Shown piece after piece: positions 3,128 through 50,822 of a DNA stretch of 64,000 nt. Where the stretch lies: positions 8,179 through 72,178 of the forward strand of contig CAYHGV010000001.1 in the NCBI GenBank assembly GCA_964356135.1, given 5' to 3'. Source of the stretch: an uncultured bacterium. GTDB taxonomy: Bacteria > Hydrothermota > Tepidihabitantia > CAYHGV01. The notes under the pieces are model-generated. The model saw nothing but the letters and a program-made list of their open reading frames with translations, made no database searches and had not been told where the DNA came from. Every line of letters begins with the position of its first letter. Positions within the stretch are counted from its first letter, which is position 1. Made by a program: the position numbers and the translations under genes.

Positions 3128-4051
3128 ATGGTAGGTTCGGTACTAAAAATACTCTTCTCCTTCCTTATTTTCCCGGGATTTTTATTCGCCGCGATTGTCG
3201 GGTTCTTCTTAACCTGGTTCGACCGGATGGTTTCCGCCCGCATCCAGTGGCGGGTCGGGCCGCCCTGGTTTCAGCCGTTTGCCGATTTTTTCAAGCTGCT
3301 CTTGAAAGAATCGACGATACCGGACGGAGTACCCCGGGTCATTTTTCTCGGTGCACCGATACTCAGTCTTACCGGCATTACGATAGCGGCGGCAATGCTC
3401 GGGTTTATGAATCTCTATCCCCGGAGTTCATTTATCGGGGATCTGGTCGTGGTGGTCTATTTTTTAGCTTTTGTTCCCTTAGGGATAGTTATCGGTGGTT
3501 CAGCTTCCAAGAATCCGTTAGGAGTGGTGGGGGCAATACGGGAGATGAATCTCTATTTCGCCTATGAACTGCCGTTACTGATCTGCGTCGTTCTGGCGAT
3601 AATCAAGACGCACAGCCTCAAAATCGGAGAGATGATTCTCTACCAGCAGGCGCACGGTCCGGTGCTGTATTCAGTATCGGGCGCAATCGCATTCGTTGTT
3701 GTGCTGATAGCGACCCAGGCGAAGCTGGGCTATGCGCCGTTCGATATTCCCGAGGCCGAGCAGGAGATTATGGCCGGACCGTATATTGAGTATTCGGGGG
3801 TGGCGCTGGCGCTGTATAAGCTTACCCGGGCAATCACTTTTTTTGTGATGCCGGTGTTGATGATCACTATTTTCTGGGGCGGCGTGCGCGACCTCTGGGC
3901 AATTCCAAAATTTATTCTCATTGTAGTTCTGGTCATTCTCATAAAAAATACCAATCCTCGACTGCGAATCGACCAGGCACTGAAATTCTTCTGGTTCGGT
4001 TTAGGAACGGCTTCCGCGGTCGGTATGATCCTGGCGTTAACCGGACTATGA
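3128..4051 (+). CDS. Membrane subunit of the NuoH/HycD/MbhM family. The ORF track begins at 3086; the ATG at 3128, which has a GGGGA hexamer upstream, is the more likely start.
   Basis: The protein is polytopic and hydrophobic, with RIQWRVGPPWFQPFADFFKLLLKE, which is the NuoH signature R.GP..G..QP.AD..K. The downstream gene overlaps it by 4 nt. Confidence 0.75.
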   Translation: MVGSVLKILFSFLIFPGFLFAAIVGFFLTWFDRMVSARIQWRVGPPWFQPFADFFKLLLKESTIPDGVPRVIFLGAPILSLTGITIAAAMLGFMNLYPRSSFIGDLVVVVYFLAFVPLGIVIGGSASKNPLGVVGAIREMNLYFAYELPLLICVVLAIIKTHSLKIGEMILYQQAHGPVLYSVSGAIAFVVVLIATQAKLGYAPFDIPEAEQEIMAGPYIEYSGVALALYKLTRAITFFVMPVLMITIFWGGVRDLWAIPKFILIVVLVILIKNTNPRLRIDQALKFFWFGLGTASAVGMILALTGL

Positions 4052-5077: not shown

Positions 5078-6268
5078 ATGGAAGTTAGTCGCAGAATCGT
5101 TCCGATCGGACCGTTCCATCCGCTCCAGGAGGAGCCGGAATTTTTCAAGCTGATAGTCGAAGGCGAAAAGGTGGTCGGGCTCGAAATTACTATCGGCTAC
5201 AACCACCGCGGCCATGAGCTGTTATGCCAGAATCGGACCTACGAACAGATTCCCTACGTGGTCGAACGGATCTGCGGGATATGTTCGAACTCCCATCCGT
5301 TGGCGTATGTGCTGGCGGTAGAAGATCTGGCAAAGATTGAGGTGCCGGTCCGTGCCCATTATATCCGAACGGTCATTGATGAGCTCCAGCGTATCCACTC
5401 CCATCTCTTATGGTTGGGTCTGGCCGGACACTTCATCGGCTACAATACGGTCTGGATGTGGTCCTGGCGCTACCGCGAGGATGTGCTCGACATTTTTGAA
5501 CTCATCACCGGTAATCGTCAGAATTATGCGATGAATAAGATCGGTGGTGTGCGCCGGGATATAGTGGAAGAGGATATTCCCAGGATTCATACGATGCTTG
5601 GCGGTCTCGAAGGGAAAATAAAAAGTTTCATCGGGATGGTTCTGGACGACCCGGTTATCCGGGCACGGTTAGAACGGGTTTGCATCCTGACGAAAGAGCA
5701 AGCCCGAGGTTACGGCGTGTTAGGACCGATCGCCCGGGCTTCGGGGATTGCGATTGATGTGCGCCGGGACGACCCCTATGCCGCTTCGGATTGGGTGAAG
5801 TGGGATATGGTGGTTTACAGCGAAGGCGATATTCTGGCGAAGGCAAAGGTCAGGCTGGTCGAGTGTTTGGAGTCAGTGAGAATTGTCAGGCAGTGCCTGG
5901 ACCGGATGGAAGAGGGGCCGATTGAAACGATGGTCACTGAGATCCCGCCGGGCGAAGGTATCGGCCGGGTTGAGGCGCCGCGCGGCGAAGTCTTTCATTA
6001 TGTACGCTCGGACGGTAGCAATATGCCCAGCCGTCATAAGATTCGGGCTCCGAGTTTCATGAATGTTCCTTCCAATGAAGTGGCGGTAGTCGGCTATTCG
6101 ATTGCCGATGCCGCGCTCTGCCTGGCCGCGGTCGACCCCTGCTACTGCTGTACCGAACGGCTGGCGGCATTTGAAAACGGGAACAAGAGATTCAGCTTTC
6201 AGGAGCTGATTAAGCTTTCCTGGGAAAAAACCGAGGAACTTAAAACTAAATTTAGGATATGCAAATAA
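5078..6268 (+). CDS. Group-4 [NiFe] hydrogenase large (catalytic) subunit, HycE/EchE/MbhL-like, with a C-terminal extension of about 35 aa.
   Basis: The N-terminal Ni-binding motif RICGICSNSH is present. The C-terminal motif is DPCYCCTER (DPCxxCxxR). The protein is 396 aa, and the tail after the C-terminal motif implies maturation by a HycI-type protease. Confidence 0.9.
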   Translation: MEVSRRIVPIGPFHPLQEEPEFFKLIVEGEKVVGLEITIGYNHRGHELLCQNRTYEQIPYVVERICGICSNSHPLAYVLAVEDLAKIEVPVRAHYIRTVIDELQRIHSHLLWLGLAGHFIGYNTVWMWSWRYREDVLDIFELITGNRQNYAMNKIGGVRRDIVEEDIPRIHTMLGGLEGKIKSFIGMVLDDPVIRARLERVCILTKEQARGYGVLGPIARASGIAIDVRRDDPYAASDWVKWDMVVYSEGDILAKAKVRLVECLESVRIVRQCLDRMEEGPIETMVTEIPPGEGIGRVEAPRGEVFHYVRSDGSNMPSRHKIRAPSFMNVPSNEVAVVGYSIADAALCLAAVDPCYCCTERLAAFENGNKRFSFQELIKLSWEKTEELKTKFRICK

Positions 6269-13677: not shown

Positions 13678-14023
13678 ATTCTTCGGCTGGTTTTTTATCT
13701 GGCTGGGTGTGTTTTTCGACCTCTTGGGCTGTATCGGCTTGGTCCGCTTCCCGGATGTCTATAACCGGCTCCAGGCAGCGACGAAATCCGTAACCCTGGG
13801 GACCTTAGGGATCATGTTCGGGATTTTTCTCCTGCATGGTTTCAGTCCGATGGGAATCAAGGCTCTGATCTGCGGTATGTTTATCCTGTTGACCGCGCCG
13901 GTTTCAGCGCACGCGTTAGCCCGGGGTTCGCTCATCTTCCGGTCGAAGATGTGGAAAGGTTCAACGGTCGATAGGTTCGGTGAAGATAAACTCGGCGGCC
14001 CGCAAATCGAGGATAAGGAATGA
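13670..14023 (+). CDS. MrpG/MnhG-like subunit.
   Basis: A 117-aa protein with LLGCIGLVRFPDVYNRLQAATKS..LG, which resembles the MnhG family. Confidence 0.7.
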   Translation: MIKFFGWFFIWLGVFFDLLGCIGLVRFPDVYNRLQAATKSVTLGTLGIMFGIFLLHGFSPMGIKALICGMFILLTAPVSAHALARGSLIFRSKMWKGSTVDRFGEDKLGGPQIEDKE

Positions 14024-14052
14024 AACCTTTAATTGTAAGATTGAACCACAAA

Positions 14053-14073
14053 TCCGCCAAGATTCATGGCGGA
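14053..14073. promoter_or_regulatory. Palindrome TCCGCCA-N7-TGGCGGA, copy 1. Other copies lie at 14841-14861, 24802-24822 (degenerate), 35155-35175, 44244-44264 and 44316-44336.
   Basis: Read directly: 7-bp perfect inverted arms with an invariant 7-nt spacer length, in six copies, all in non-coding DNA. Confidence 0.6.
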
Positions 14074-14164
14074 CACAAAAAGCACAAAGAAGATAATTAT
14101 TTAGGTGTCAAAGAAATTTTCTTAAACTTTGTGTCCTTTGTATCCTTTGTGGTAAAAATTTCAA

Positions 14165-14773
14165 ATGAAAAAACCTAAACTCCGTGAGTTAGCCGAAGCT
14201 CTGCGGGCGATCTTCACCGGTCCCTATACCCGGAAGTTTCCCAGGGAGCCTTCACCCGCATTCCCCCGCTATCGGGGAATAATCGCCTTTGATAAAGATA
14301 AGTGTCTTGGCTGCGGCGCATGCGTTGAGGTCTGCCCGGCTTTAGCCCGGGAAATGGTCGACGATAAAAAAAAGAAAATCAGGAGGAATATCCACTATCA
14401 GGACCGGTGCGTCTACTGCGGTCAGTGTGTCGCCTACTGCACCAATAAGTATGCCATCGTTCATACGCCGGAATACGATCTGGCAAATCTCGACCGCAGC
14501 CACTACGATAATTCTATCGAATTAGAGCTGGTGATGTGCGAGGTCTGCGGAGGGGTGATAACCACCCGGAATCACCTGCGCTGGATCGCCAACAAGGTCG
14601 GTGAACTGGCGTATGCCAATCCGACGTTGATGTTAATAAAATTGGGCGAGCTGGGTTTAGTCGAGGAAACTGTACCCCGAACCGAACCCGCGCCCTACCG
14701 TTCCGACACCCAGAGATTGCTCTGCCCCCGATGCCGCCGGGAGATTCATCTCACCGAGGTATGGGGGTATTGA
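14165..14773 (+). CDS. 2x[4Fe-4S] ferredoxin subunit (NuoI/HycF/MbhN-like).
   Basis: The motifs are CLGCGACVEVCP and CVYCGQCVAYC, with extra Cys pairs (CEVCGG, CPRCRRE). The protein ends EVWGY*, and the last codons are duplicated at 18598-18630. Confidence 0.75.
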   Translation: MKKPKLRELAEALRAIFTGPYTRKFPREPSPAFPRYRGIIAFDKDKCLGCGACVEVCPALAREMVDDKKKKIRRNIHYQDRCVYCGQCVAYCTNKYAIVHTPEYDLANLDRSHYDNSIELELVMCEVCGGVITTRNHLRWIANKVGELAYANPTLMLIKLGELGLVEETVPRTEPAPYRSDTQRLLCPRCRREIHLTEVWGY

Positions 14774-14861
14774 CGTTTTTTTCCCGAGAGATAAAATAAT
14801 ACCAGCGAACTAACATAGAACTTGAATTCTGACATAACCATCCGCCACGAGGTATGGCGGA

Positions 14862-15045
14862 CACACGAAGAAACACGAACGGGCACGAAAGGAATATTGG
14901 TAGTGAGCGAAATTCAATTTTCACCAATGAGGTGGAAAACAAAGAATGGTTGGTGGCGCTTCGCTCCACCTACTCTTCGAGTTTCGTGTCAATTCGCAAT
15001 CGTTCGTGTAAATTCGTGGTTTCTTATTTTAGGACTTGGGATAAA
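14862..15045. repeat. CACGAA-box element: a left arm with several ACACGAA/GCACGAA repeats and a right arm with matching TTCGTG repeats. Related copies lie at 23800-23910, 24620-24680, 44040-44200, 16640-16700 (partial) and 14074-14140 (a CACAAA variant).
   Basis: Read directly. The copies at 23800 and 44040 share a core of about 45 nt: GAAATTCG.AGAATAGAG.GA.TG.AAGGA.CTCAAA. Their termini are inverted (TTATCACG...CGTGATAA). Confidence 0.55.
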
Positions 15046-15065
15046 ACTTTAACTACAGGAGGCAG

Positions 15066-16551
15066 TTACATGAAACGAGTTTTTTTCGGATTGGCGATAG
15101 TAGTGGTTTCGCTTTTCGCCCAGACCGCGATCGAAGGTGCCTGGGAAGGAACAATTGTCGTTCTCGAGCAAGAGCTTGCGACCACGGTCAGTTTTTCAAA
15201 ATCGGGAGATAGCCTAACCGCAACCATCGATATTCCGCAGCAGAACGCAAGCAATCTCAAACTTGAGAAGGTGAGTTTTGATGGAACCAGGGTCCATTTC
15301 GAGCTTGCTGCTCAAACCAGGGTTATTTTTGACGGTAAGCTCGATACGGGAAAGATAACCGGTGATTTTACCCAGGCAGGGTTCAAGGGAACATTCGAGC
15401 TTGCGCCAGCCAAAAGAGTGGCAACCGGACCACCGCCGTATCGGGAAGAAGAAGTTTCGATAAAAGTAAACGCAGAAGTTACTCTTGCCGGGACGCTATC
15501 GCTGCCGCCCGATTCGGCGAAGCACCGGGCGGTGATACTTATCACCGGCAGCGGCCAGCAGGATCGCGATGAAAACGTCTTCGGGTTCAAAGTGTTCAAG
15601 GTTCTGGCAGACAGTCTTACCCGCGCCGGCATCGTAGTTCTGCGTTGCGACGACCGCGGCTTCGGCAAGTCGAAGGGCGGCGAAGGAGGGTGGAACAAGA
15701 ATACCTCCCGGGATTTTGCTCAGGATGTGCTTGCCCAGGTCGATTACTTGAAGACCCGTCCGGAGGTTGATACCGTTCAGCTCGGACTGCTCGGTCACAG
15801 CGAAGGTGCGCTCATTGCCGGTATGGTTGCGGTTGCTTCTCCGAGCGTTGCTTTTGTTGTTTTAATGGCGGGGTCGGCGGTTCGCGGTGACCAACTGCTG
15901 CTTGCCCAGCTTGAAGCGGTGATGCGGGCGGATAGTGTTTCCGAGAAAAAAATCGCTCGCCAGCGTGATATCCAGCGACGGATATTTGAGTTTGCTCGCA
16001 CCGGCAAAGGCGAAGAGGCGCTGCGCAAGGATATCGGCACATTGATGCTCGCCGATATCAGCGAGCTGCCCGCGGAGCAGCGCAAGGTAATAAGTAATAC
16101 GGAAGAGATTGTGAAAAAACAGGTCGATGGCCAGATTGCGGCCGTCACCAGCCCCGGTTTTCGGTTCTTTCTCGATTACGACCCCCGGTCCGACCTCGGC
16201 CGGATGCAGACTCCGATGCTGGCACTGTTCGGGAAGTTCGATGTTCAGGTTCCGGCCGAGATGAACGCCCGGGCGATGGAGGAGACGTTCAAAAAGGCGG
16301 GGAAGATCAACTACACCATCAAGACCTGCTGCCAGGCGAATCATCTGTTCCAGTCGGCGAAGACCGGCGGTATCTCGGAATACGGCAAGCTGCCGAAAGA
16401 GTTCACTCCCTGTTTCCTGCCGACCATCATCAACTGGATTCTGGGAAAGCCGATTCCGGAGAAGTGCGAGGGGGAGCAAGGTAATCCCCACGAGGGCTGT
16501 CCGAAGGCAGAGACCGGTAACTGCGCCGGCTGCCCGTATCACCAGAAATAG
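15066..16551 (+). CDS. Secreted alpha/beta-hydrolase (GHSEG nucleophile elbow) with a Cys-rich C-terminal tail.
   Basis: There is a signal peptide (MKRVFFGLAIVVVSLFAQTAIEG), then GLLGHSEGALIAG (GxSxG) with later Asp and His. The ORF track begins at 14854, but that upstream stretch is a repeat element and not coding. Confidence 0.7.
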
Positions 16552-16595
16552 ATTCGGGTTGTTATATTGAAATTTGTAAATGCGAATTAAAGAAA

Positions 16596-16625
16596 CCAAC
16601 AGGTTTTATTTTACACCTGTTTGGT
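16596..16625 (+). terminator. Hairpin (ACCAACAGGT...ACCTGTTTGGT) followed by a weak T-tract, lying 45 nt after the hydrolase stop.
   Basis: Inverted repeat read directly. Its core AACAGGT/ACCTGTT is the same palindrome found at 16797 and 18767. Confidence 0.4.
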
Positions 16626-16796
16626 GAATTTCGGAGTTGCTTAATTCTAAAATTCCCTTCGTGCCTATTCGGGTCTCTTCGTGTCAATTCGTGGTTAAGA
16701 CTGGATTCGGGTTGAACTAAGGATACTGAGTAGGTTCTCCAAGCGTTTTTTTGTCATTGCGCGCAATCTCAAGTGTAAATATCTCAAGACGATTGT

Positions 16797-16818
16797 AGCA
16801 ACAGGTCTTTAGACCTGT
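16797..16818. promoter_or_regulatory. Near-perfect 20-bp palindrome AACAGGTCTTTAGACCTGTT, about 75 bp upstream of the -35 box of the 16952 operon. A degenerate second copy lies at 18767-18788, upstream of the HNH gene.
   Basis: Read directly. Both copies sit within a conserved ~40-nt context (TGTAG.AACAGGTCTTT(T)AGAC.TGT...). Confidence 0.5.
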
Positions 16819-16951
16819 TGATGAGTTTGTAGGGTTAGAACGCGTCGCCAACTTTGTTTAATTTCACTAGGCTGTGCGTCGTCTTGACAAAAAGAGAAAA
16901 ATGGGTTATTAGTTAGTATGGGGTTAAAAGAAGGCCTGCCGAGAGGCGAAT

Positions 16952-17389
16952 ATGAATAGACCAAATCTAAAAAACAGAGCTCACGACCGGCAGGACAGGG
17001 TCGCGGTCTGGAGGATTACGGTCGATGAGAAACTGTCCGAGGATTATATCCGGCTGTTAGTCAGTCCATTAGACTCCGGCGTAAAAGACTTTTCCGACGA
17101 GAAGGATAATTGGGGTAGAGAGACGATAATGTTTGTCCAGTCCGAAAATTACGCCCAGATAATGAAAATACCGGCAAAATTTTCTAAAAAGATTCTGTGG
17201 TCGGACTTATGGGAAGGGCAGGTCTTTCTTGCTGGCAGATTCCGAATCGTGGGTAATAAAAAAACACCAGTGAAGTTTAGGGTTGACTCAAAACAGCAAA
17301 ATTTTCTTTCAATTTATGAATTGGCGAAGAAACAGATGAAACGCATCTATTTCCGCACGCTCGAGGGGAAGAGTGATGTCCCGAGTTAG
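16952..17389 (+). CDS. Hypothetical 145-aa protein encoded immediately upstream of, and overlapping, the MBL-fold gene.
   Basis: ORF with a sigma70-like promoter upstream (TTGACA at 16884). It overlaps the next gene by 17 nt, which suggests translational coupling. No recognisable motif. Confidence 0.5.
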   Translation: MNRPNLKNRAHDRQDRVAVWRITVDEKLSEDYIRLLVSPLDSGVKDFSDEKDNWGRETIMFVQSENYAQIMKIPAKFSKKILWSDLWEGQVFLAGRFRIVGNKKTPVKFRVDSKQQNFLSIYELAKKQMKRIYFRTLEGKSDVPS

Positions 17390-18461
17390 AATTGAGCCCC
17401 AAGACTTGGTCATTCATATCCTCAATGTCGGTTTCGGTGATACGATCCTGATCGGATTTCCAGCTCAGAACCTGAGCGCGCGGGCATACGGCTTGGTCGA
17501 TTGTAACGATGCCCGGAAGACGCTCGGCTATTTAAATAATTTGATACCGAAGCCAACCGAGAGGAAGCATCTGGCGTTTGTCTGTGCCACCCACCCGCAT
17601 ATGGACCATATCAGCGGTATCCAGGAAGTGCTTAAAGACCCTACGTATAAACCGTCTGAGTTCTGGGACAGCGGTTTCCGGCATAATTCACTCACTTATC
17701 GGGATAGCTTACTTGCAGTTTCAAGTGAAGGGATTAAGATGATTCAGGTTTCTTCAGGAATGGAATGGTATTTTGGCAGTGTTCGGATAACGGTATTGTC
17801 GCCGTCGGTGGCGCTTCGTAACCGATATGCGACCTATGGTGTTGATATGAATAACGCTTCGGTCGTTCTCCGGCTTGAGCATCACAGCGATGATATTTTG
17901 CTCACGACCTCGAGAGAATATAGCGGTAAGGCAAGCGAGGCGGTGGAACGGAATGCCGGTCAGTCGGTCGTTATACTCGCGGGTGACGCAGAATTCGACA
18001 GTTGGGCACAGATAGCTCAGGATTTTCCCAGGCTCGAACGGACGAGCGGTCATGACCCGCTCGTGAAGAAGATGATTAACTACCTCGCATGTTCGGCGGT
18101 GAAGGTTGCACATCACGGCAGCATGCACAGCGCACCCCTCGATATATATGAAAAGATGAAGCCCCAAACCGCAATTATATCGACCAAACAGGAAGTTAGT
18201 ACGAAACGAGGAACGGAGCAGGACTTACGTCGAGGATTATTTCCTCATTCCGCAACTACCATTGCCTTAGAAGAGTGCGATGCTCGGGTATTGACGACCG
18301 ACGGTAGTCATGAAGGGGAAGAAATCGGCGGCAAAATGAGGGCGCAGGAATTGAGCCATGAGGGGAGTGTCATACTGGTGGTGCCGCCGGCAGGCAAACT
18401 GCGCTGGTGCAAGCTCAATGATAAAGCCGATGAGATTCCTGAGCCGCCGACCGAGGTCTAA
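17373..18461 (+). CDS. Metallo-beta-lactamase-fold hydrolase of the ComEC/Rec2 type.
   Basis: ILNVGFGDTILI...VDCNDA...ATHPHMDHISG (HxHxDH)...VKVAHHGS are characteristic of the ComEC-type MBL domain. There is no membrane domain. Confidence 0.75.
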   Translation: MMSRVRIEPQDLVIHILNVGFGDTILIGFPAQNLSARAYGLVDCNDARKTLGYLNNLIPKPTERKHLAFVCATHPHMDHISGIQEVLKDPTYKPSEFWDSGFRHNSLTYRDSLLAVSSEGIKMIQVSSGMEWYFGSVRITVLSPSVALRNRYATYGVDMNNASVVLRLEHHSDDILLTTSREYSGKASEAVERNAGQSVVILAGDAEFDSWAQIAQDFPRLERTSGHDPLVKKMINYLACSAVKVAHHGSMHSAPLDIYEKMKPQTAIISTKQEVSTKRGTEQDLRRGLFPHSATTIALEECDARVLTTDGSHEGEEIGGKMRAQELSHEGSVILVVPPAGKLRWCKLNDKADEIPEPPTEV

Positions 18462-18836
18462 ATATGGACTGCGACTCATTTATTTAGAGATTTGATTCCA
18501 CTTTTGCGAAAAAGTGAAACAGGGAAGCTGAAAGTACAGAGGGCGGTGATGTAGGATGGTTCAGCATCAGCGATTATTGTATCCTCCGCTACCGGAGCGA
18601 AATTCACCTAACCCAGGTATGGGGGTATTAGGTTTCCGAGTTTGATAATTTTGAGTAAGGTAGCGGTGCGCTCGGACTGCTACAGTCCGCTATCGCACAC
18701 AGTAAAAGCAAATCTTGGTTTTTTCTCTTTCGTTAGGCGGTGGGAACTCTTCCAGAAAGCTGTAGAAACAGGTCTTTTAGACTTGTAGATTGTTTTGGGT
18801 ATCGTTTGGCTTGACAAATCTCCGATTCAAGGGTAA

Positions 18837-19616
18837 ATGTTACCTATGGAGGCTGAAGTAAAAGCTCCAAAAGAAGAAAAAGAAAACTGGTCAGAGCAAG
18901 AACTCGTTGTCGCCTTTAATTTGTACTGCAAGCTTCCTTTTGGTCAGTATCATAAACACAATAAAAAGGTAATTGAAATTGCTAAAATTCTTGGAAGAAC
19001 ACCGAGTGCGGTTGCGCTAAAATTATGTAATTTTGCAAGACTCGACCCGGTTCATCAAAAGCGTGGTATCAGGGGAATGAAACACGGGAGCAAACTTGAT
19101 GAGAAAATCTGGAATGAATTCAATCAAAACTGGGGTGGACTTTCATATCAGAGTGAAATTGCACTTGCCCAATTAAAAGGTCTTAAACATTACGGTTTGA
19201 TAAAAGACACGGAGAAGTTTCCCCCAGGTAAAGAAAAAGAAGCACTTGTTAAGGCGAGGATAAATCAGAATTTTTTTCGTGAGATGATATTGGCAGGTTA
19301 CAGAAATAGGTGCGCGATATGTTCTTTACCTGAAGTAAATTTATTAGTGGCTAGCCATATTATACCATGGTCTGAGAATGCGGATTTACGAATGAATCCA
19401 AGAAACGGAATTTGTATGTGTGTTTTACATGATAAAGCTTTCGATAAGGGTTTAATCACGATCAATGGTGATTATAAATTATTACTTTCGAAAATACTCA
19501 AAAGACTTTCTAAAGAACCAGCTATTCAAAGGGGATTCATTTTTTACGAGAGTTTTAAAATAAGACTACCTGATAAATTTATTGAATTCCATCGAAATGA
19601 GGTATTTATCGGATGA
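18837..19616 (+). CDS. HNH endonuclease-domain protein (restriction-enzyme-like HNH_2 type) with an N-terminal domain of unknown function.
   Basis: C-terminal RCAICSL...LVASHIIPWS...NGICMCVLHDKAFDKG (Cys pair plus the H-N-H core). Confidence 0.7.
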   Translation: MLPMEAEVKAPKEEKENWSEQELVVAFNLYCKLPFGQYHKHNKKVIEIAKILGRTPSAVALKLCNFARLDPVHQKRGIRGMKHGSKLDEKIWNEFNQNWGGLSYQSEIALAQLKGLKHYGLIKDTEKFPPGKEKEALVKARINQNFFREMILAGYRNRCAICSLPEVNLLVASHIIPWSENADLRMNPRNGICMCVLHDKAFDKGLITINGDYKLLLSKILKRLSKEPAIQRGFIFYESFKIRLPDKFIEFHRNEVFIG

Positions 19617-19763: not shown

Positions 19764-20771
19764 ATGACAAAATTTGAGGTTAACCTGAACGAGAAATTTG
19801 CTTTGATTGCTGTCAGTACGTATGTTGACCGTGAATTACCATCTGAAAGACAGTATGCTCATGACCTTTGGGCAGTAAAGCTGCTACCTATCGGTGTCGG
19901 TAATCTCTGGGAGAAATGGCTGGGAAGTATCCTGATGGATCGATTAAAAAAAAGCAGTTTGTTTTTTATTGCCAAAGGCCCTTCGACCAATCCGGAACTT
20001 CTTGATGGAGACAACAAGAAATATATGAATCGAGTTTTTAATTTTTATAGGGGTTTGTTACTAAGTGGATTTCATATCGTAGATTCACCTATTCAATTAA
20101 CAGGGGTCAATAATGACCAAATAATAGATGTCCGAGAGATTGGCGAGCTTCCGAATCCTCGTTCTATCAGTGGTGAACATAACCAAAATGTCGATTCCAT
20201 ACAACTTATAGATGCTGCAAAGGTTGCCGATGCCATCAGGGATTTGCCAGGTCGAGGGAAGCTCTCGCGGTTTAAACGGATTTTGAATGCCTTTTTAGGC
20301 GGTATTGAAAGTTATTATGTGGAAGACAAAATTCATCAATTCTGTCGATGTATCGAAGGTTTCATCTACCCAGAGGTAGGGAAGACAAAGAGCCGATTCT
20401 GTTCACGAACTGAGTTGTTTCTCGGCCCACGCAATCATACGCTGATGGATCATTTGTATGATATTCGCAGTGCGGTAGAGCATATGCATAACCCACTGGA
20501 TGCAATTAGTGGCAGAAGTGGGAAGGAAAAGCGTCTTCTACTGTTACAGCGAAGCATCGAGGCAGAAGCGGTCGCTCGCTATTGCATTCGTCATCTGTTG
20601 CTGAATCGAAATTTATGGCAATATTTTGAAAATGAAAGCACACTAAATGACTTTTGGAAGAATAAGACAAATGCTGAACGGCAAAATATTTGGGGTGAGC
20701 CGTTTGATATCGGTGCTGTCTCAACCGGGTTCGATCCTACTATTTATAATGATGCGGACCTTGGTTTTTAA
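19764..20771 (+). CDS. Hypothetical protein with an Rx4H motif (RSAVEH); possibly a HEPN-like abortive-infection or RNase-type effector.
   Basis: The ORF contains YDIRSAVEHMHN (Rx4H), lies between the HNH and methyltransferase genes, and has lower GC than the flanking core genes. Confidence 0.45.
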   Translation: MTKFEVNLNEKFALIAVSTYVDRELPSERQYAHDLWAVKLLPIGVGNLWEKWLGSILMDRLKKSSLFFIAKGPSTNPELLDGDNKKYMNRVFNFYRGLLLSGFHIVDSPIQLTGVNNDQIIDVREIGELPNPRSISGEHNQNVDSIQLIDAAKVADAIRDLPGRGKLSRFKRILNAFLGGIESYYVEDKIHQFCRCIEGFIYPEVGKTKSRFCSRTELFLGPRNHTLMDHLYDIRSAVEHMHNPLDAISGRSGKEKRLLLLQRSIEAEAVARYCIRHLLLNRNLWQYFENESTLNDFWKNKTNAERQNIWGEPFDIGAVSTGFDPTIYNDADLGF

Positions 20772-22122: not shown

Positions 22123-22827
22123 ATGCCAAAGGAATGGATAAAAGGCGTTGAGGGCTGCGCTCTAAAGTTCAAAAGAGAGGGTTTGTTAAACGCTGCGATG
22201 AACCGTTGGGGTCTTAATAAGGCGCACAGCGTTGATACGACTTCAGAACTGATACGACAATGTTCTCCTCGATCTTTTGCAGAATGGGAAAGGTTTTATT
22301 TTAGCAATGCGAAACAAAAGAAGCGGGACGGGGTTAGGATTACAAAAAAATATTTGAAAGATTTAGGAAGGAAGCTCTATATTAAATTAACGGAAGTTGT
22401 TCAGAGTGAAATAGAATCTATTACAGAGGAAGAATGCATAGATTATGTTTTTAATCTTGTATTGAATCGAACATTTGAGGGTTATCGGTCTGAAATCCGG
22501 ACCGTTTATGGACAATTGCAGGATGCCTTGGGAGTCAGTGTCGAACCCGCTCCCGATGAGTGGGATCGGGGTTATAATGTGGATTTTTTCATTAAGGTTA
22601 AGGATAAATACATTGGCCTTCAGATCAAGCCCGCAGGATTCGCTTACATTCCGCAAATCATTAATGAATTGGGGTTTCAGAAAAAGACCCATGAAAAATT
22701 TATTGCTAAATATGGTGGTAAAGTATTCTATATAATTTCAGTCAAGGAGGGTAAACAGAAAAAAATCCATAATACCGAAGTTATTGAAAAAATTAGGAAA
22801 GAGATTCAGAGGTTGGAAAAATTATAA
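22123..22827 (+). CDS. Hypothetical protein; candidate PD-(D/E)xK-type restriction endonuclease partner of the adjacent methyltransferase.
   Basis: It begins 3 nt after the methyltransferase stop, is 234 aa, and contains GYNVDFFIKVKDKYIGLQIKP, which may be a D...K/ExK-like core. There is no firm family match. Confidence 0.4.
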   Translation: MPKEWIKGVEGCALKFKREGLLNAAMNRWGLNKAHSVDTTSELIRQCSPRSFAEWERFYFSNAKQKKRDGVRITKKYLKDLGRKLYIKLTEVVQSEIESITEEECIDYVFNLVLNRTFEGYRSEIRTVYGQLQDALGVSVEPAPDEWDRGYNVDFFIKVKDKYIGLQIKPAGFAYIPQIINELGFQKKTHEKFIAKYGGKVFYIISVKEGKQKKIHNTEVIEKIRKEIQRLEKL

Positions 22828-23768: not shown

Positions 23769-23995
23769 CCGGACAAATTTGAGTAAGAAAAAGATTTCAT
23801 CACGAAAGTTATGAAATCACGAAAACACGAAATTCGTAGAATAGAGCGACTGGAAGGAGCTCAAATTCGCCAAGAAGTATTGCTGATTTCGTGGTAATTT
23901 TTATACTCGTCAGGGCTGTCCTTGAGCACTTGACAATCGACTTTTAAAGGGCACAATGGATTAATGAAACCACAAATAAAAAATTTTAAGGAGGT

Positions 23996-24592: not shown

Positions 24593-24885
24593 GATAATGT
24601 AAACTCGAATCCAGACGTAACCACGAATGGGCACGAAGAGAAACGAAGTAACACGAACGCCTCGTTTCGAGGCGAAATATTAGACTTGAAATGCGAAGCA
24701 TAAGTGGAGTGAAACGATACCTGCAAAACCCGATATTGACTAAATAGGTGAAAAATAAAAAATATTTTTCTTTAATTCGCAATCATTCGAGTAATCTGTC
24801 ACTCGCCATACAGAGTGGCGGGTAAGGCGGACGTGGTTTTTTATCGCTGGATTGAGGGTAAATAATAATTAAGGAGGTGTTGAAT

Positions 24886-44470: not shown

Positions 44471-45151
44471 TTACTTAAAAACTATAACCTTCTTCACGCT
44501 CCTTAACTTTCCGGCAGTAAGGTTGATAAAATAGACCCCCTGCGCATTACCGGTCATATCCAGTTGGAGATGATAATTTCCGCGTTCCTGCACGCCATCC
44601 GCCAGCCTCTTGATTTCTCGTCCGGCTATATCGTAGACGCTTAATGCAACCTCACCTCTTGCAGGTATTTGATAGCTGATTGTCGTTGTCGTGGAGGTTG
44701 GATTTTGACCAAGACGCAGATTTGGACTCTCTACTGTGAGATTTGAATTTTCCTCCACACCTCCTTCCGGACCTAATCTGATGAGATAAACATCAGCCCC
44801 ACCTGCCCCGTAAGAAGTAGTCATGCCTGCGATGATATAACCGCCATCATCGGTCTGCACCACTGAATTGCCCCTATCTCCACCACTGCCGCCACAGGCT
44901 TTTGTCCAGAGTGTATCGCCATTGGCATCAGTCCTGATGAGATAAACATCACCACTACCTTTGGTGTAATACCCGATCATACCCGCTATAATATATCCAC
45001 CATCACCCGTCTGCGCCACTGAATGGCCTGCATCCCAATCACCGCCGCCATATGTTTTTGTCCAGAGCGTATCTGGTGGTTGGGCAGGTACCGTGTTCGG
45101 AAATAGCACTGCTACCATTACCACTAAACCTAATATTTTTATTCTCTTCAT
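44471..45151 (-). CDS. Secreted beta-propeller-repeat protein with a type IX secretion C-terminal sorting domain. It is a paralogue of 49403..50392.
   Basis: Signal peptide MKRIKILGLVVMVAVLF. Repeats of the form DTLWTKTYGG..D.G.SV.QT.DGGYIIAG. A C-terminal NPTSTTTTISYQIP...GVYFINL...KKVIVFK, which is typical of the T9SS sorting domain. The ORF track extends to 45328, but that stretch is unlikely to be coding. Confidence 0.7.
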   Translation of the reverse strand: MKRIKILGLVVMVAVLFPNTVPAQPPDTLWTKTYGGGDWDAGHSVAQTGDGGYIIAGMIGYYTKGSGDVYLIRTDANGDTLWTKACGGSGGDRGNSVVQTDDGGYIIAGMTTSYGAGGADVYLIRLGPEGGVEENSNLTVESPNLRLGQNPTSTTTTISYQIPARGEVALSVYDIAGREIKRLADGVQERGNYHLQLDMTGNAQGVYFINLTAGKLRSVKKVIVFK

Positions 45152-45552
45152 TTTTCCTCCATGTTTTTGCTCATTTTGGTTATTGCCCATTAAGTGCGGT
45201 GTTCCCCTGAGACCTTCCTTTGAATCCTCTGTTTGGGACAAACCATCATCACCGATACTTGTTCTGTAACCCATATAATTCCTTGCCTTACGACAAATTA
45301 AGCCGTAAAGCGGTTTTGCCAAGCACAATATTTGGTAGGTTTTTCAATGGCTTTTTTATAACTTCCTGGTTATAGACGGCTACCTCAACCTCAACCGGTA
45401 AGTCTTTTTACGGAATATTTGACATAGTGCGAATCGAGCCCTAGATTAGAGCGCAGGACGTCAAATAGATTACCTACAATTTAATGAGAAAATTCTCAGG
45501 AACTTTTTCCGAGTTGTGGCTTCAGCGCAATCTTAAATCTGTCAATTAAATT

Positions 45553-49402: not shown

Positions 49403-50392
49403 CTACTGCAAAACTATAACCTTCTTCACGCTCCTTAACTTTCCGGCAGTAAGGTTGATAAAATAGACCCCTTGAGCATAACCGGTCAGATTTAGTTGCA
49501 GATGATAATCACCACGCTCCTGCACATTAGCCACCAACCTCTTGATTTCACTTCCGCTTATATCGTAGACGCTTAATGAAACCTCGCTCCTTACAGGTAT
49601 TTGATAACTGATTGTCGTTGTCGTGGAGATTGGATTTTGACCGAGACGCAGATTTGGACTCTCTAATGTGAGATTTGAATTTTCCTCAACGCCTGTTTCA
49701 GGGCCTAACCGGATGAGATAAACATCCCGATCACCTGCTCCGAAAGACTCGGTATAGCCTGCAATGATATAACCCCCATCACTGGTCTGGGCCACTGAAC
49801 GGCCCCCATCATTATCACTCCCGCCGTAGGTTTTTGTCCAGAGCGTGTCGCCATTGGTATCGGTCCTGATGATATAAACATCAACATCCCCTGCCCCGAA
49901 AGAACCGGTCTCGCCAGCGATGATATAGCCGCCATCATCAGTCTGCACCACAGACCAGCCATATTCATCGCCCTCACCGCCATAGGTTTTTGTCCAGACG
50001 GAATCGCCATTGCCATCGGTCTTGATGAGATAAACATTTCCGTTATTTTCTACGTAAGGCCGAGTCCGACCAGCAATGATATAGCCTCCATCACTTGTCT
50101 CGACCATTGAGTATGCCTTATCTATATAACTACCACCATAGATTTTTGTCCAGCACATGTCTCCAAGGCTATCGGTCTTGATTAGATAAATATCACTACC
50201 CTCTGCCCCGTAAGATGTATAACCTGCGATGATATAGCTGCCATCTGCGGTTACTTCCACTGTATACCCCATATCATTTGCGCTACCTCCGTAGGTTCTT
50301 GTCCAGAGCGTGTCCGGTGGTTGAGCAGGGGCCATGTTCGATAATAGCACCACTGCCAATACCACTAACCCTAATATTTTTATTCTCGTCAT
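49403..50392 (-). CDS. Secreted beta-propeller-repeat protein with a T9SS C-terminal sorting domain (5 repeats). It is a paralogue of 44471..45151.
   Basis: Signal peptide MTRIKILGLVVLAVVLL; five repeats; a sorting domain that is nearly identical at the nucleotide level to that of the 44471 gene (about 85 nt around 49403-49490 against 44471-44560). Confidence 0.7.
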   Translation of the reverse strand: MTRIKILGLVVLAVVLLSNMAPAQPPDTLWTRTYGGSANDMGYTVEVTADGSYIIAGYTSYGAEGSDIYLIKTDSLGDMCWTKIYGGSYIDKAYSMVETSDGGYIIAGRTRPYVENNGNVYLIKTDGNGDSVWTKTYGGEGDEYGWSVVQTDDGGYIIAGETGSFGAGDVDVYIIRTDTNGDTLWTKTYGGSDNDGGRSVAQTSDGGYIIAGYTESFGAGDRDVYLIRLGPETGVEENSNLTLESPNLRLGQNPISTTTTISYQIPVRSEVSLSVYDISGSEIKRLVANVQERGDYHLQLNLTGYAQGVYFINLTAGKLRSVKKVIVLQ

Positions 50393-50822
50393 TTTTTCCT
50401 CCCTTCCCTGCACATTTTGGGTCTTAAACATTGATTGTGGAGTTGCGTTGAGGTCGTCGCATAAATTCCCCACTTTCGATAATCCAATACTCCCTGTAGT
50501 TTTTCTGTAACCCATTTCGCTCCTTACGACAAAATAAGCTATAAAACGGTTGTGTCAAGTGCAAATTATTATCTTAATGGCTCGTCTGTTAATGAATGGT
50601 GGAGATTGACTTTGAGAACACAAAAATCAAAAAGTTATGAGTTCGTATAATCCCTCTTATCAGGACTGGATAAAATTCTTTCAATAGACCGCTCTGCTCC
50701 ATTCTCTATCCGGTCCAGGGCGTGGACATGGGTCGAGTGGTGGTCAATCGGATTTATTCGACTTTCCCGGCTATTGGTTTAACATTGACAAGGCCAGTAT
50801 TTTCAATGAGAATGTAATCACA

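Follow-up and report, generated by a model that had tools for sequence, protein, structure and literature searches.

Integrative elements that insert into the 3' end of a gene regenerate that end and leave the displaced original behind as an orphan repeat. Such an arrangement is found in a 64-kb stretch of DNA from an uncultured bacterium (contig CAYHGV010000001.1; the whole stretch analysed is called the window below), in which the end of the ferredoxin gene fdx recurs 3.86 kb downstream. In the account of e14 in Escherichia coli icd that is available from PMC13626634 (citing Hill et al. 1989), a substitute gene end is brought by the element and the displaced end persists as the icdC pseudogene. 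The two icd ends, according to the same account, differ mostly by synonymous or conservative changes (PMC13626634), and e14 itself is a 15-kb defective prophage that excises on its own under SOS induction (PMC13626634). Cis-mobilizable elements (CIMEs) and microCIMEs are integrase-less, are bounded by att direct repeats and have accreted at the 3' ends of streptococcal fda, rpsI and rpmG, where they form tandem arrays of about 0.13 to 13 kb with adaptive cargo (PMC7563491). They are defined as deletion derivatives of integrative and conjugative or integrative and mobilizable elements (ICEs/IMEs) and have been detected in tandem with one (PMC7563491). The fdx locus is a new case of this known type of insertion (e14/icd-icdC; CIME accretion).

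The product of fdx is a 202-aa 2x[4Fe-4S] subunit of the NuoI/HycF/MbhN-like kind, and its gene is the final one of an Mrp/Mbx-type hydrogenase-like operon. Homologues carry names such as hydrogenase-4 component H and formate hydrogenlyase subunit 6, the nearest named relatives come from candidate division WOR-3, and the open reading frame (ORF) is intact with the family's conserved C-terminus. The principal parts of the locus are as follows.

14165-14773 (+): target gene fdx (Pfam Fer4 families, homologue names, operon context)
14675-14780 (+): unit A, the functional and probably insert-borne gene end, codons ~170-202 with the stop and a few nt (nhmmer unit profile, alignment)
14757-14771 (+): perfect core of 15 nt, common to the gene and the orphan; codons V-W-G-Y (exact match search)
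14781-18537 (+): inserted lineage-specific cargo, 3.76 kb (blastn of the window against the related contig L110, 4-mer usage)
18538-18637 (+): orphan unit A', a pseudogene fragment (frameshift, two Cys-to-Tyr changes, TAG, profile, alignment)

An earlier note on this DNA had claimed that the fdx 3' end is duplicated, and this holds. The perfect core AGGTATGGGGGTATT is present at exactly two sites in the window, 14757-14771 and 18615-18629, with ~0.05 sites expected by chance when up to two mismatches are allowed. The repeat had been put at ~45 bp around this 15-bp core; the core stands, the length does not. Ungapped, A and A' align over 47 nt at 79% identity (14725-14771 vs 18583-18629), a gapped alignment stretches the repeat to ~14700-14794 vs 18559-18648 (about 95 nt), and the nhmmer profile built from all copies gives a full unit of ~100 nt, about twice the claimed size, with an E-value of 5e-22 (the fragment itself being included in the profile). 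In the flanks of the core, 22/32 further bases match in frame and the stop is in register. No third copy of the unit is present in the window by the unit profile, and no outer att copy was found to the right of the restriction-modification genes by blastn-short and the unit profile.

Read in frame, A' gives ...RYRSEIHLTQVWGY* with a TAG stop at 18629-18631, just as had been predicted for the second copy. Upstream of RYRSEIHLTQVWGY a 1-nt frameshift is required to continue as ..QRLLYP.., both CxxC cysteines are changed to Tyr, and no ferredoxin ORF lies upstream. A' is thus an fdx end that has been displaced and is decaying as a pseudogene fragment. Conservation of the WGY* terminus extends throughout the fdx protein family, and the HLT motif is restricted to this lineage among the 120 best fdx homologues, which indicates that the orphan derives from a close relative of the window fdx itself. 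The genes assigned to the bracketed DNA, namely an alpha/beta hydrolase, a 145-aa ORF and a protein of the metallo-beta-lactamase (MBL) fold, were correctly named (Pfam for the named folds).

The strongest evidence comes from relatives. Contigs other than the window are denoted by handles (L001, L110, L111, L059, L079 and so on), and close relatives were obtained from membership of the fdx 90% cluster; genome and metagenome scans with fdx and the hydrolase returned distant relatives only. L110 and L111 are long contigs, identical to each other and ~80% identical to the window, with fdx at least 90% identical in amino acids. Comparison with relatives lacking the segment, proposed earlier as a check, is informative here, in that both contigs share the two flanks without the bracket genes. 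L110 is colinear with the window at 75-88% nucleotide identity on both sides, first over the whole operon and then from the HNH gene onward, through a methylase/SNase gene, a 291-aa gene, a GyrI-like gene and beyond, and by blastn against the window it has neither the hydrolase nor the 145-aa/MBL pair. Since the flank is conserved and the bracket absent, the flank is old and the bracket is the variable part. The sole match of window ~14781-18537 to L110 is a 27-nt motif (C; 26/27 identical), at L110 10693-10719, 84 nt past the fdx stop.

The slot in L110 holds other DNA, in the order fdx, C motif, DUF4258/MqsA-like pair, O1, 65-aa ORF, O2, HNH. The first module consists of a DUF4258 gene and an MqsA-like zinc-ribbon partner, a toxin-antitoxin (TA)-like pair, and each of the two modules is followed by an orphan of its own.

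L110 11412-11517: orphan fdx end O1 (profile, alignment)
L110 11874-11978: orphan fdx end O2 (profile, alignment)

O1 and O2 are ~105 nt each, and the smallest module is 365 nt. O1, O2 and A' start within ~10 nt of one another, about 100-108 nt before the stop, and O2 and A' hold the equivalent position, just before the HNH-methylase flank. All unit copies are 71-92% identical to one another, with perfect runs of about 15-20 nt. With two other modules, each with its own orphan, in the L110 slot, the gene end is a recurrent insertion site in this clade, as the att-like reading predicts. L001, a 1290-nt contig with fdx at 90% amino-acid identity, stays colinear with the window beyond the stop codon and into a box element described below, so the left junction is shared with that relative.

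Additional information on the history of the present gene end can be drawn from the kinds of substitution. A and A' differ by 11 synonymous and 5 non-synonymous changes (proportions of sites changed, pS 0.80 and pN 0.11), a bias with P = 0.011 against decay of an in-situ duplicate, and the remaining pairs of unit copies show a like bias. Differences dominated by synonymous changes imply that the copies are snapshots of functional alleles. With the unit boundary taken as a prior from the L110 orphans, third-position differences between the window and L001 number 67/170 to the left of it and 5/32 to the right (p = 0.009). Against L110 there is no such drop at the boundary (15/32 to the right of it). 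Over the 200 nt that follow the stop, the window and L001 share 89.5% identity, as compared with 65% for fdx third positions. Unit A and the DNA downstream of it thus have a more recent window/L001 ancestry than the gene body. Taken together, the synonymous bias and the drop in divergence at the boundary point to a functional end that arrived with the insert, the orphan being the displaced older end. This separate ancestry of the window gene end fits the e14/icd-icdC pattern.

These observations are most simply accounted for by the following history. The ancestor would have had fdx running straight into the HNH flank. Lineage-specific cargo (14781-18537) would then have entered the terminal ~100 nt of fdx, at once or stepwise, by Campbell-type (single-crossover) recombination. 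The incoming DNA would have brought its own version of the gene end, unit A, which is the one in use, so that the gene stayed intact; the previous end would have been pushed downstream to decay as A' beside the older HNH-methylase flank. The window lineage would have taken in the present bracket and the L110 lineage two other modules successively, each insertion displacing the then-current gene end, with older ends accumulating distally. The most likely agent would be a site-specific recombinase encoded elsewhere and acting in trans, as for CIME-like integrase-less modules, and homologous recombination of the flanks would help to spread modules between relatives. The earlier proposal of insertion into the gene's 3' end, with regeneration of the end and orphaning of the old one, is supported by L110, the synonymous bias and the boundary drop. 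As a whole, the reading of repeated Campbell-type insertion at the fdx end, probably by a recombinase in trans, is considered reasonably probable.

Several observations weigh against it. No integrase or recombinase is detected by Pfam in the bracket, as had been stated earlier for the bracket, or among the 30 window ORFs tested (these include the bracket ORFs, the restriction-modification genes and ten others in low-GC parts), nor does L110 show a recombinase in its called genes up to 10 kb from fdx. No contig of a viral collection carries the gene end (0 matches). To the left of the orphans no conserved sequence of an element-side arm is seen by eye, no formal test having been made. A truly empty site was not found, the L110 slot being alternatively occupied. 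An unguided search for a single change-point places the break at nt 14681 with p = 0.13, which is not significant, and the boundary test is based on 32-35 codons. Finally, the hydrolase block is native in composition, and its history within the module may be a separate one.

The lack of an integrase among the tested window ORFs and among L110 genes within 10 kb of fdx is also what would be expected if the same geometry arose with no dedicated recombinase, either from RecA-excised circles that re-enter a relative through a single crossover in the ~100-nt end, or from linear DNA that enters by homology-facilitated illegitimate recombination during transformation. Modules down to 365 nt are in keeping with this, as is the WOR-3-like character of the hydrolase, both in its composition and in its homologues, which would suit DNA acquired from a relative, and circles formed between two flanking copies would carry a unit of fixed boundary and so give consistent orphan starts. 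On the other hand, copies at 71-92% identity with perfect runs of ~15-20 nt are a poor RecA substrate, and illegitimate joints would not repeat the left boundary in three independent events. The two variants together form the main rival and are regarded as unlikely, though deserving of attention. Three independent events with one boundary, at copies only 71-92% identical, favour instead a site-specific recombinase acting in trans; the boundary and the identity levels suggest such an enzyme.

Explanations that dispense with mobile DNA, or place it elsewhere, fare worse. Unequal crossing-over can generate same-orientation repeats separated by a few kb, and the C motif and promoter block described below are duplicated too, in the same order, as would follow from a local tandem duplication of the fdx end, or a truncated second paralogue, that decayed in place. 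The excess of synonymous changes (11 vs 5; P = 0.011) speaks against this, the hydrolase and the MBL pair have no second copy, a second fdx paralogue within 10 kb is seen in 0/69 loci, and the cargo between the copies differs in L110, which makes such a duplication very unlikely. Strongly foreign composition begins right after the orphan (GC content at third codon positions, GC3, 0.30-0.43 vs 0.63 in the core), the hydrolase is native-like and the left junction is shared by L001; the orphan could therefore be imagined to have been imported from a diverged relative with the low-GC HNH/restriction-modification island, beside a native bracket. However, L110 has the HNH-methylase-291aa-GyrI flank at a core-like 75-88% and an orphan at the same position without the bracket genes, and this comparison refutes the import, which is left with a very slim probability. 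Simple arithmetic gives about two 15-nt perfect direct repeats somewhere in 64 kb, so chance similarity, or convergence on a conserved peptide, might be considered; given 22/32 in-frame flank matches, a stop in register, the profile E-value of 5e-22 and the like structure in L110, it is scarcely credible. A diversity-generating retroelement was rejected, as no reverse transcriptase domain was found in the ORFs tested and the mismatches are of all kinds, mostly synonymous and not adenine-specific. An integron was likewise rejected: no IntI was found among the genes tested, the anchor is the fdx gene, and the recurring site is a colinear coding copy and not an attC palindrome. A Xer/dif-type reading was dropped by inspection, no dif-like site being seen, without a formal test.

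The remaining features of the cargo and its right border are these.

14840-15021 (+): CACGAA/TTCGTG box element with hairpin, three direct boxes, centre and three inverted boxes (repeat search)
15070-16551 (+): secreted alpha/beta hydrolase, 493 aa (Pfam Hydrolase_4 / Peptidase_S9)
16599-16620 (+): C0 hairpin (ACAGGT..ACCTGT) after the hydrolase gene (pattern search)
16639-16696 (+): second TTCGTG half-element of the box type (repeat search)
16791-16822 (+): C motif/hairpin heading the MBL-pair module (direct repeat of C')
16952-17389 (+): 145-aa partner gene of the MBL-fold protein (conserved partner in other contigs)
17373-18461 (+): MBL-fold (ComEC-type) protein, 362 aa (homologues, weak PADLOC matches)
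18761-18790 (+): C' hairpin, a diverged C copy (30 nt, 3 mismatches and 1 indel)
18837-19616 (+): HNH_2 endonuclease, start of the conserved right flank (Pfam, PADLOC; 79% nucleotide identity to L110 12059-12757)

Compositional analysis, also proposed earlier, gave a divided result. Over 14781-18537 the 4-mer correlation to the core is 0.839, below that of every core window of the same size; the hydrolase does not share in this, its GC3 (0.636) equalling that of core genes (0.63) and its 4-mer usage being likewise indistinguishable from the core. WOR-3 proteins at 50-52% identity are the best named homologues of the hydrolase, and their genomic surroundings are different. The 145-aa/MBL pair is mildly atypical (GC3 0.53-0.56; MBL gene 0.556) and recurs as a conserved gene pair in contigs of TA06, Aminicenantes, Omnitrophota and others (L005, L008 and L011 among them), with the partner at 45-48% and MBL-fold homologues at 57-68% identity across several phyla. 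The bracket is therefore composite, with a compositionally native hydrolase that has WOR-3 homologues and an MBL pair that is a module of several phyla. The 145-aa gene overlaps the MBL-fold gene, and its product has no Pfam or PADLOC match; the MBL-fold protein has weak PADLOC matches to LmuA (N-terminus), RTasMBL and PDC-M48B, and just 24-31% ComEC-type matches in plasmid and phage collections. Neighbourhoods of the pair are variable, with toxin-antitoxin and restriction genes and no integrase. Possibly the two genes form an undescribed defence pair. A 13-codon mini-ORF (MGLKEGLPRGEYE; 16919-16960) overlaps the start of the 145-aa gene; its first codon lies where, in the second unit, the homologous position holds the HNH start codon.

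The A/A' repeat is accompanied by a second, shorter direct repeat, the C and C' motifs with their TTGACA promoter-like sites (16884-16889 after C, 18811-18816 after C'), in the same order and colinear with it. C and C' align with a score of 16, compared with 8.8 +/- 1.2 for shuffles. The C0 hairpin pattern occurs at three places in the window, all within this locus, with 0.07 expected. A 9-nt sequence, CGTTTTTTT, was considered as a target duplication of the hydrolase block and rejected, the sequence just after it being also shared with A' and O1.

The box element forms the leader of the hydrolase gene. Folding of 14774-15069 (296 nt) gives -89 kcal/mol (z = -4.7), and this sequence matches L001 at 89.5% identity. 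In public annotation the hydrolase (P0241, 565 aa) begins at 14854, inside the box element; the start at 15070, with a signal peptide (MKRVFFGLAIVVV..) and GGAGG a few bases upstream, looks like the real one. Members of the same intergenic family are seen in the window at 14047-14160, 14840-15021, 16639-16696, 23791-23832 and 24622-24657, and elsewhere at L110 9527-9982 and L001 285-419. Their layout is a hairpin, three direct boxes of ~7 nt at ~10-nt spacing, a centre and inverted boxes; the box sequence varies (CACGAA/TTCGTG, CACAAA/TTTGTG, CGCAGA-type) and the left and right halves remain complementary. The element in the mnhG-fdx spacer of L110 encloses a PDDEXK_3 nuclease gene between its halves, and the window element there is gene-less. 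No Rfam match was obtained for the box elements or for 13900-19000. The family may be transposon-like, of the kind of miniature inverted-repeat transposable elements, or may be a structured RNA leader. At its end (1205-1290) L001 has a 33-nt piece of box element, GGTGTCGCTCCGCTCCACCTACTCACGGAGTTT, duplicated in tandem, which probably caused the assembly break.

To the right of the orphan, the block of HNH, 335-aa, methylase and MjaI-like nuclease genes is strongly atypical (GC3 0.30-0.43). The 335-aa gene of unknown family (19764-20771) and the MjaI-like restriction nuclease (22123-22827) are present in the window and not in L110, which shares the HNH and methylase/SNase genes around them; the two are further lineage-specific insertions within the restriction-modification block.

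Outside the clade, 63 fdx loci from other phyla were scanned for downstream copies of the gene end, and one clear case was found. In L079 (10001-11320), from an uncultured bacterium of a distant phylum with an fdx homologue at 43% identity, a 647-nt insert separates the fdx stop from a 27-nt duplicate of the gene end. The insert carries a single NYN-domain gene and a TTGACA..TATATT promoter-like site, and the orphan copy keeps the operon terminator, which is clean. In the nearest relative of L079, L059 (10500-10674), fdx runs directly into such a terminator. L079 is a second, independent instance. Strong repeats of a gene end on the same strand are rare in a survey that covered 1182 gene ends (1.3 Mb of DNA). 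Besides the two ferredoxin cases, those inspected are explained otherwise, by an intergenic repeat family in L054 and by shared sorting-signal ends in the window; L058 has a 41-nt match. The apparent gene-end repeats of L054 were rejected, as they belong to an intergenic family overlapped by spurious high-GC ORFs. That family, in an Anaerolineales metagenome-assembled genome, is a ~90-nt repeat (GTCATGCTGAGCGAAGCGAAGCATCT...CCCTCAGAATGACA) in both orientations (1240-1350, 3225-3320, 5346-5391) and lies between genes of the same kind of hydrogenase-like operon. In the window, two genes with Por_Secre_tail domains (type IX secretion sorting; 44471-45328 and 49403-50515, minus strand) have 3' ends of 53-62 nt that are 100% identical (44478-44539 and 49405-49466, 5 kb apart), pointing to a recent gene-conversion or duplication event at the sorting signal.

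For an uncultured phylum, the locus offers a clean, datable example of accessory genes entering a fixed place in the chromosome with no mobility gene nearby. The cargo at the fdx slot ranges over a hydrolase, a multi-phylum two-gene MBL module and toxin-antitoxin-like pairs, and the orphan gene ends, like fossil layers, record the order of insertion. As a search key, the ~100-nt unit can serve to find the responsible recombinase, or to show that none is needed, and the question of the enzyme is relevant to the general problem of how defence-gene hot spots come to be filled. An integrase-independent cassette system has a modest chance of being the right account. It is conceivable, if doubtful, that the ~100-nt fdx end is a portable homology arm or landing pad for integrase-free cassettes that depend on host recombination functions only. 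Equally tentative is the idea that defence or toxin-antitoxin modules build in this way an integron-like array behind a conserved operon, recurring in the window, L110 and L079.

Homology-facilitated illegitimate recombination of naturally transformable bacteria makes random illegitimate joints and usually deletes recipient DNA. It resembles the present case in that foreign DNA enters beside a short homologous anchor without an element-encoded enzyme, and it differs in that three independent events here share a boundary and the recipient end is kept. Integron cassette arrays are similar as a row of small, mostly promoter-proximal cargo modules with a recurring site of ~60-140 nt and a fixed chromosomal anchor; unlike them, the fdx locus has no IntI or attI, what recurs is a gene-end copy, not an attC palindrome, and every module is furnished with a promoter-like site. 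The likeness to CIMEs lies in the repeats, the cargo (hydrolase and 145-aa/MBL pair here, TA-like pair and 65-aa ORF in L110) and the tandem accretion of modules in L110. In contrast, the repeat here is ~100 nt of coding sequence and the host belongs to an uncultured WOR-3 lineage; no ICE/IME and no functional partner element is seen at the site in the window or L110, nor was any trace of a relaxase, coupling protein or integrase detected there. Unlike e14, the inserts of the window and L110 are 0.4-3.8 kb, carry cargo only without a recombinase gene nearby, and in L110 are stacked in tandem. An integrase at the element end, as in the e14/icd type, is seen neither among the tested window ORFs nor in L110 within +/-10 kb of fdx; the flanking repeat, the replacement end, the dead displaced end and a relative without the insert (with other modules there) are all found. 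As with e14 and phage 21 at icd, the insert has entered a protein-coding gene within its 3' end, the gene is kept functional, and the displaced fragment stands at the far side.

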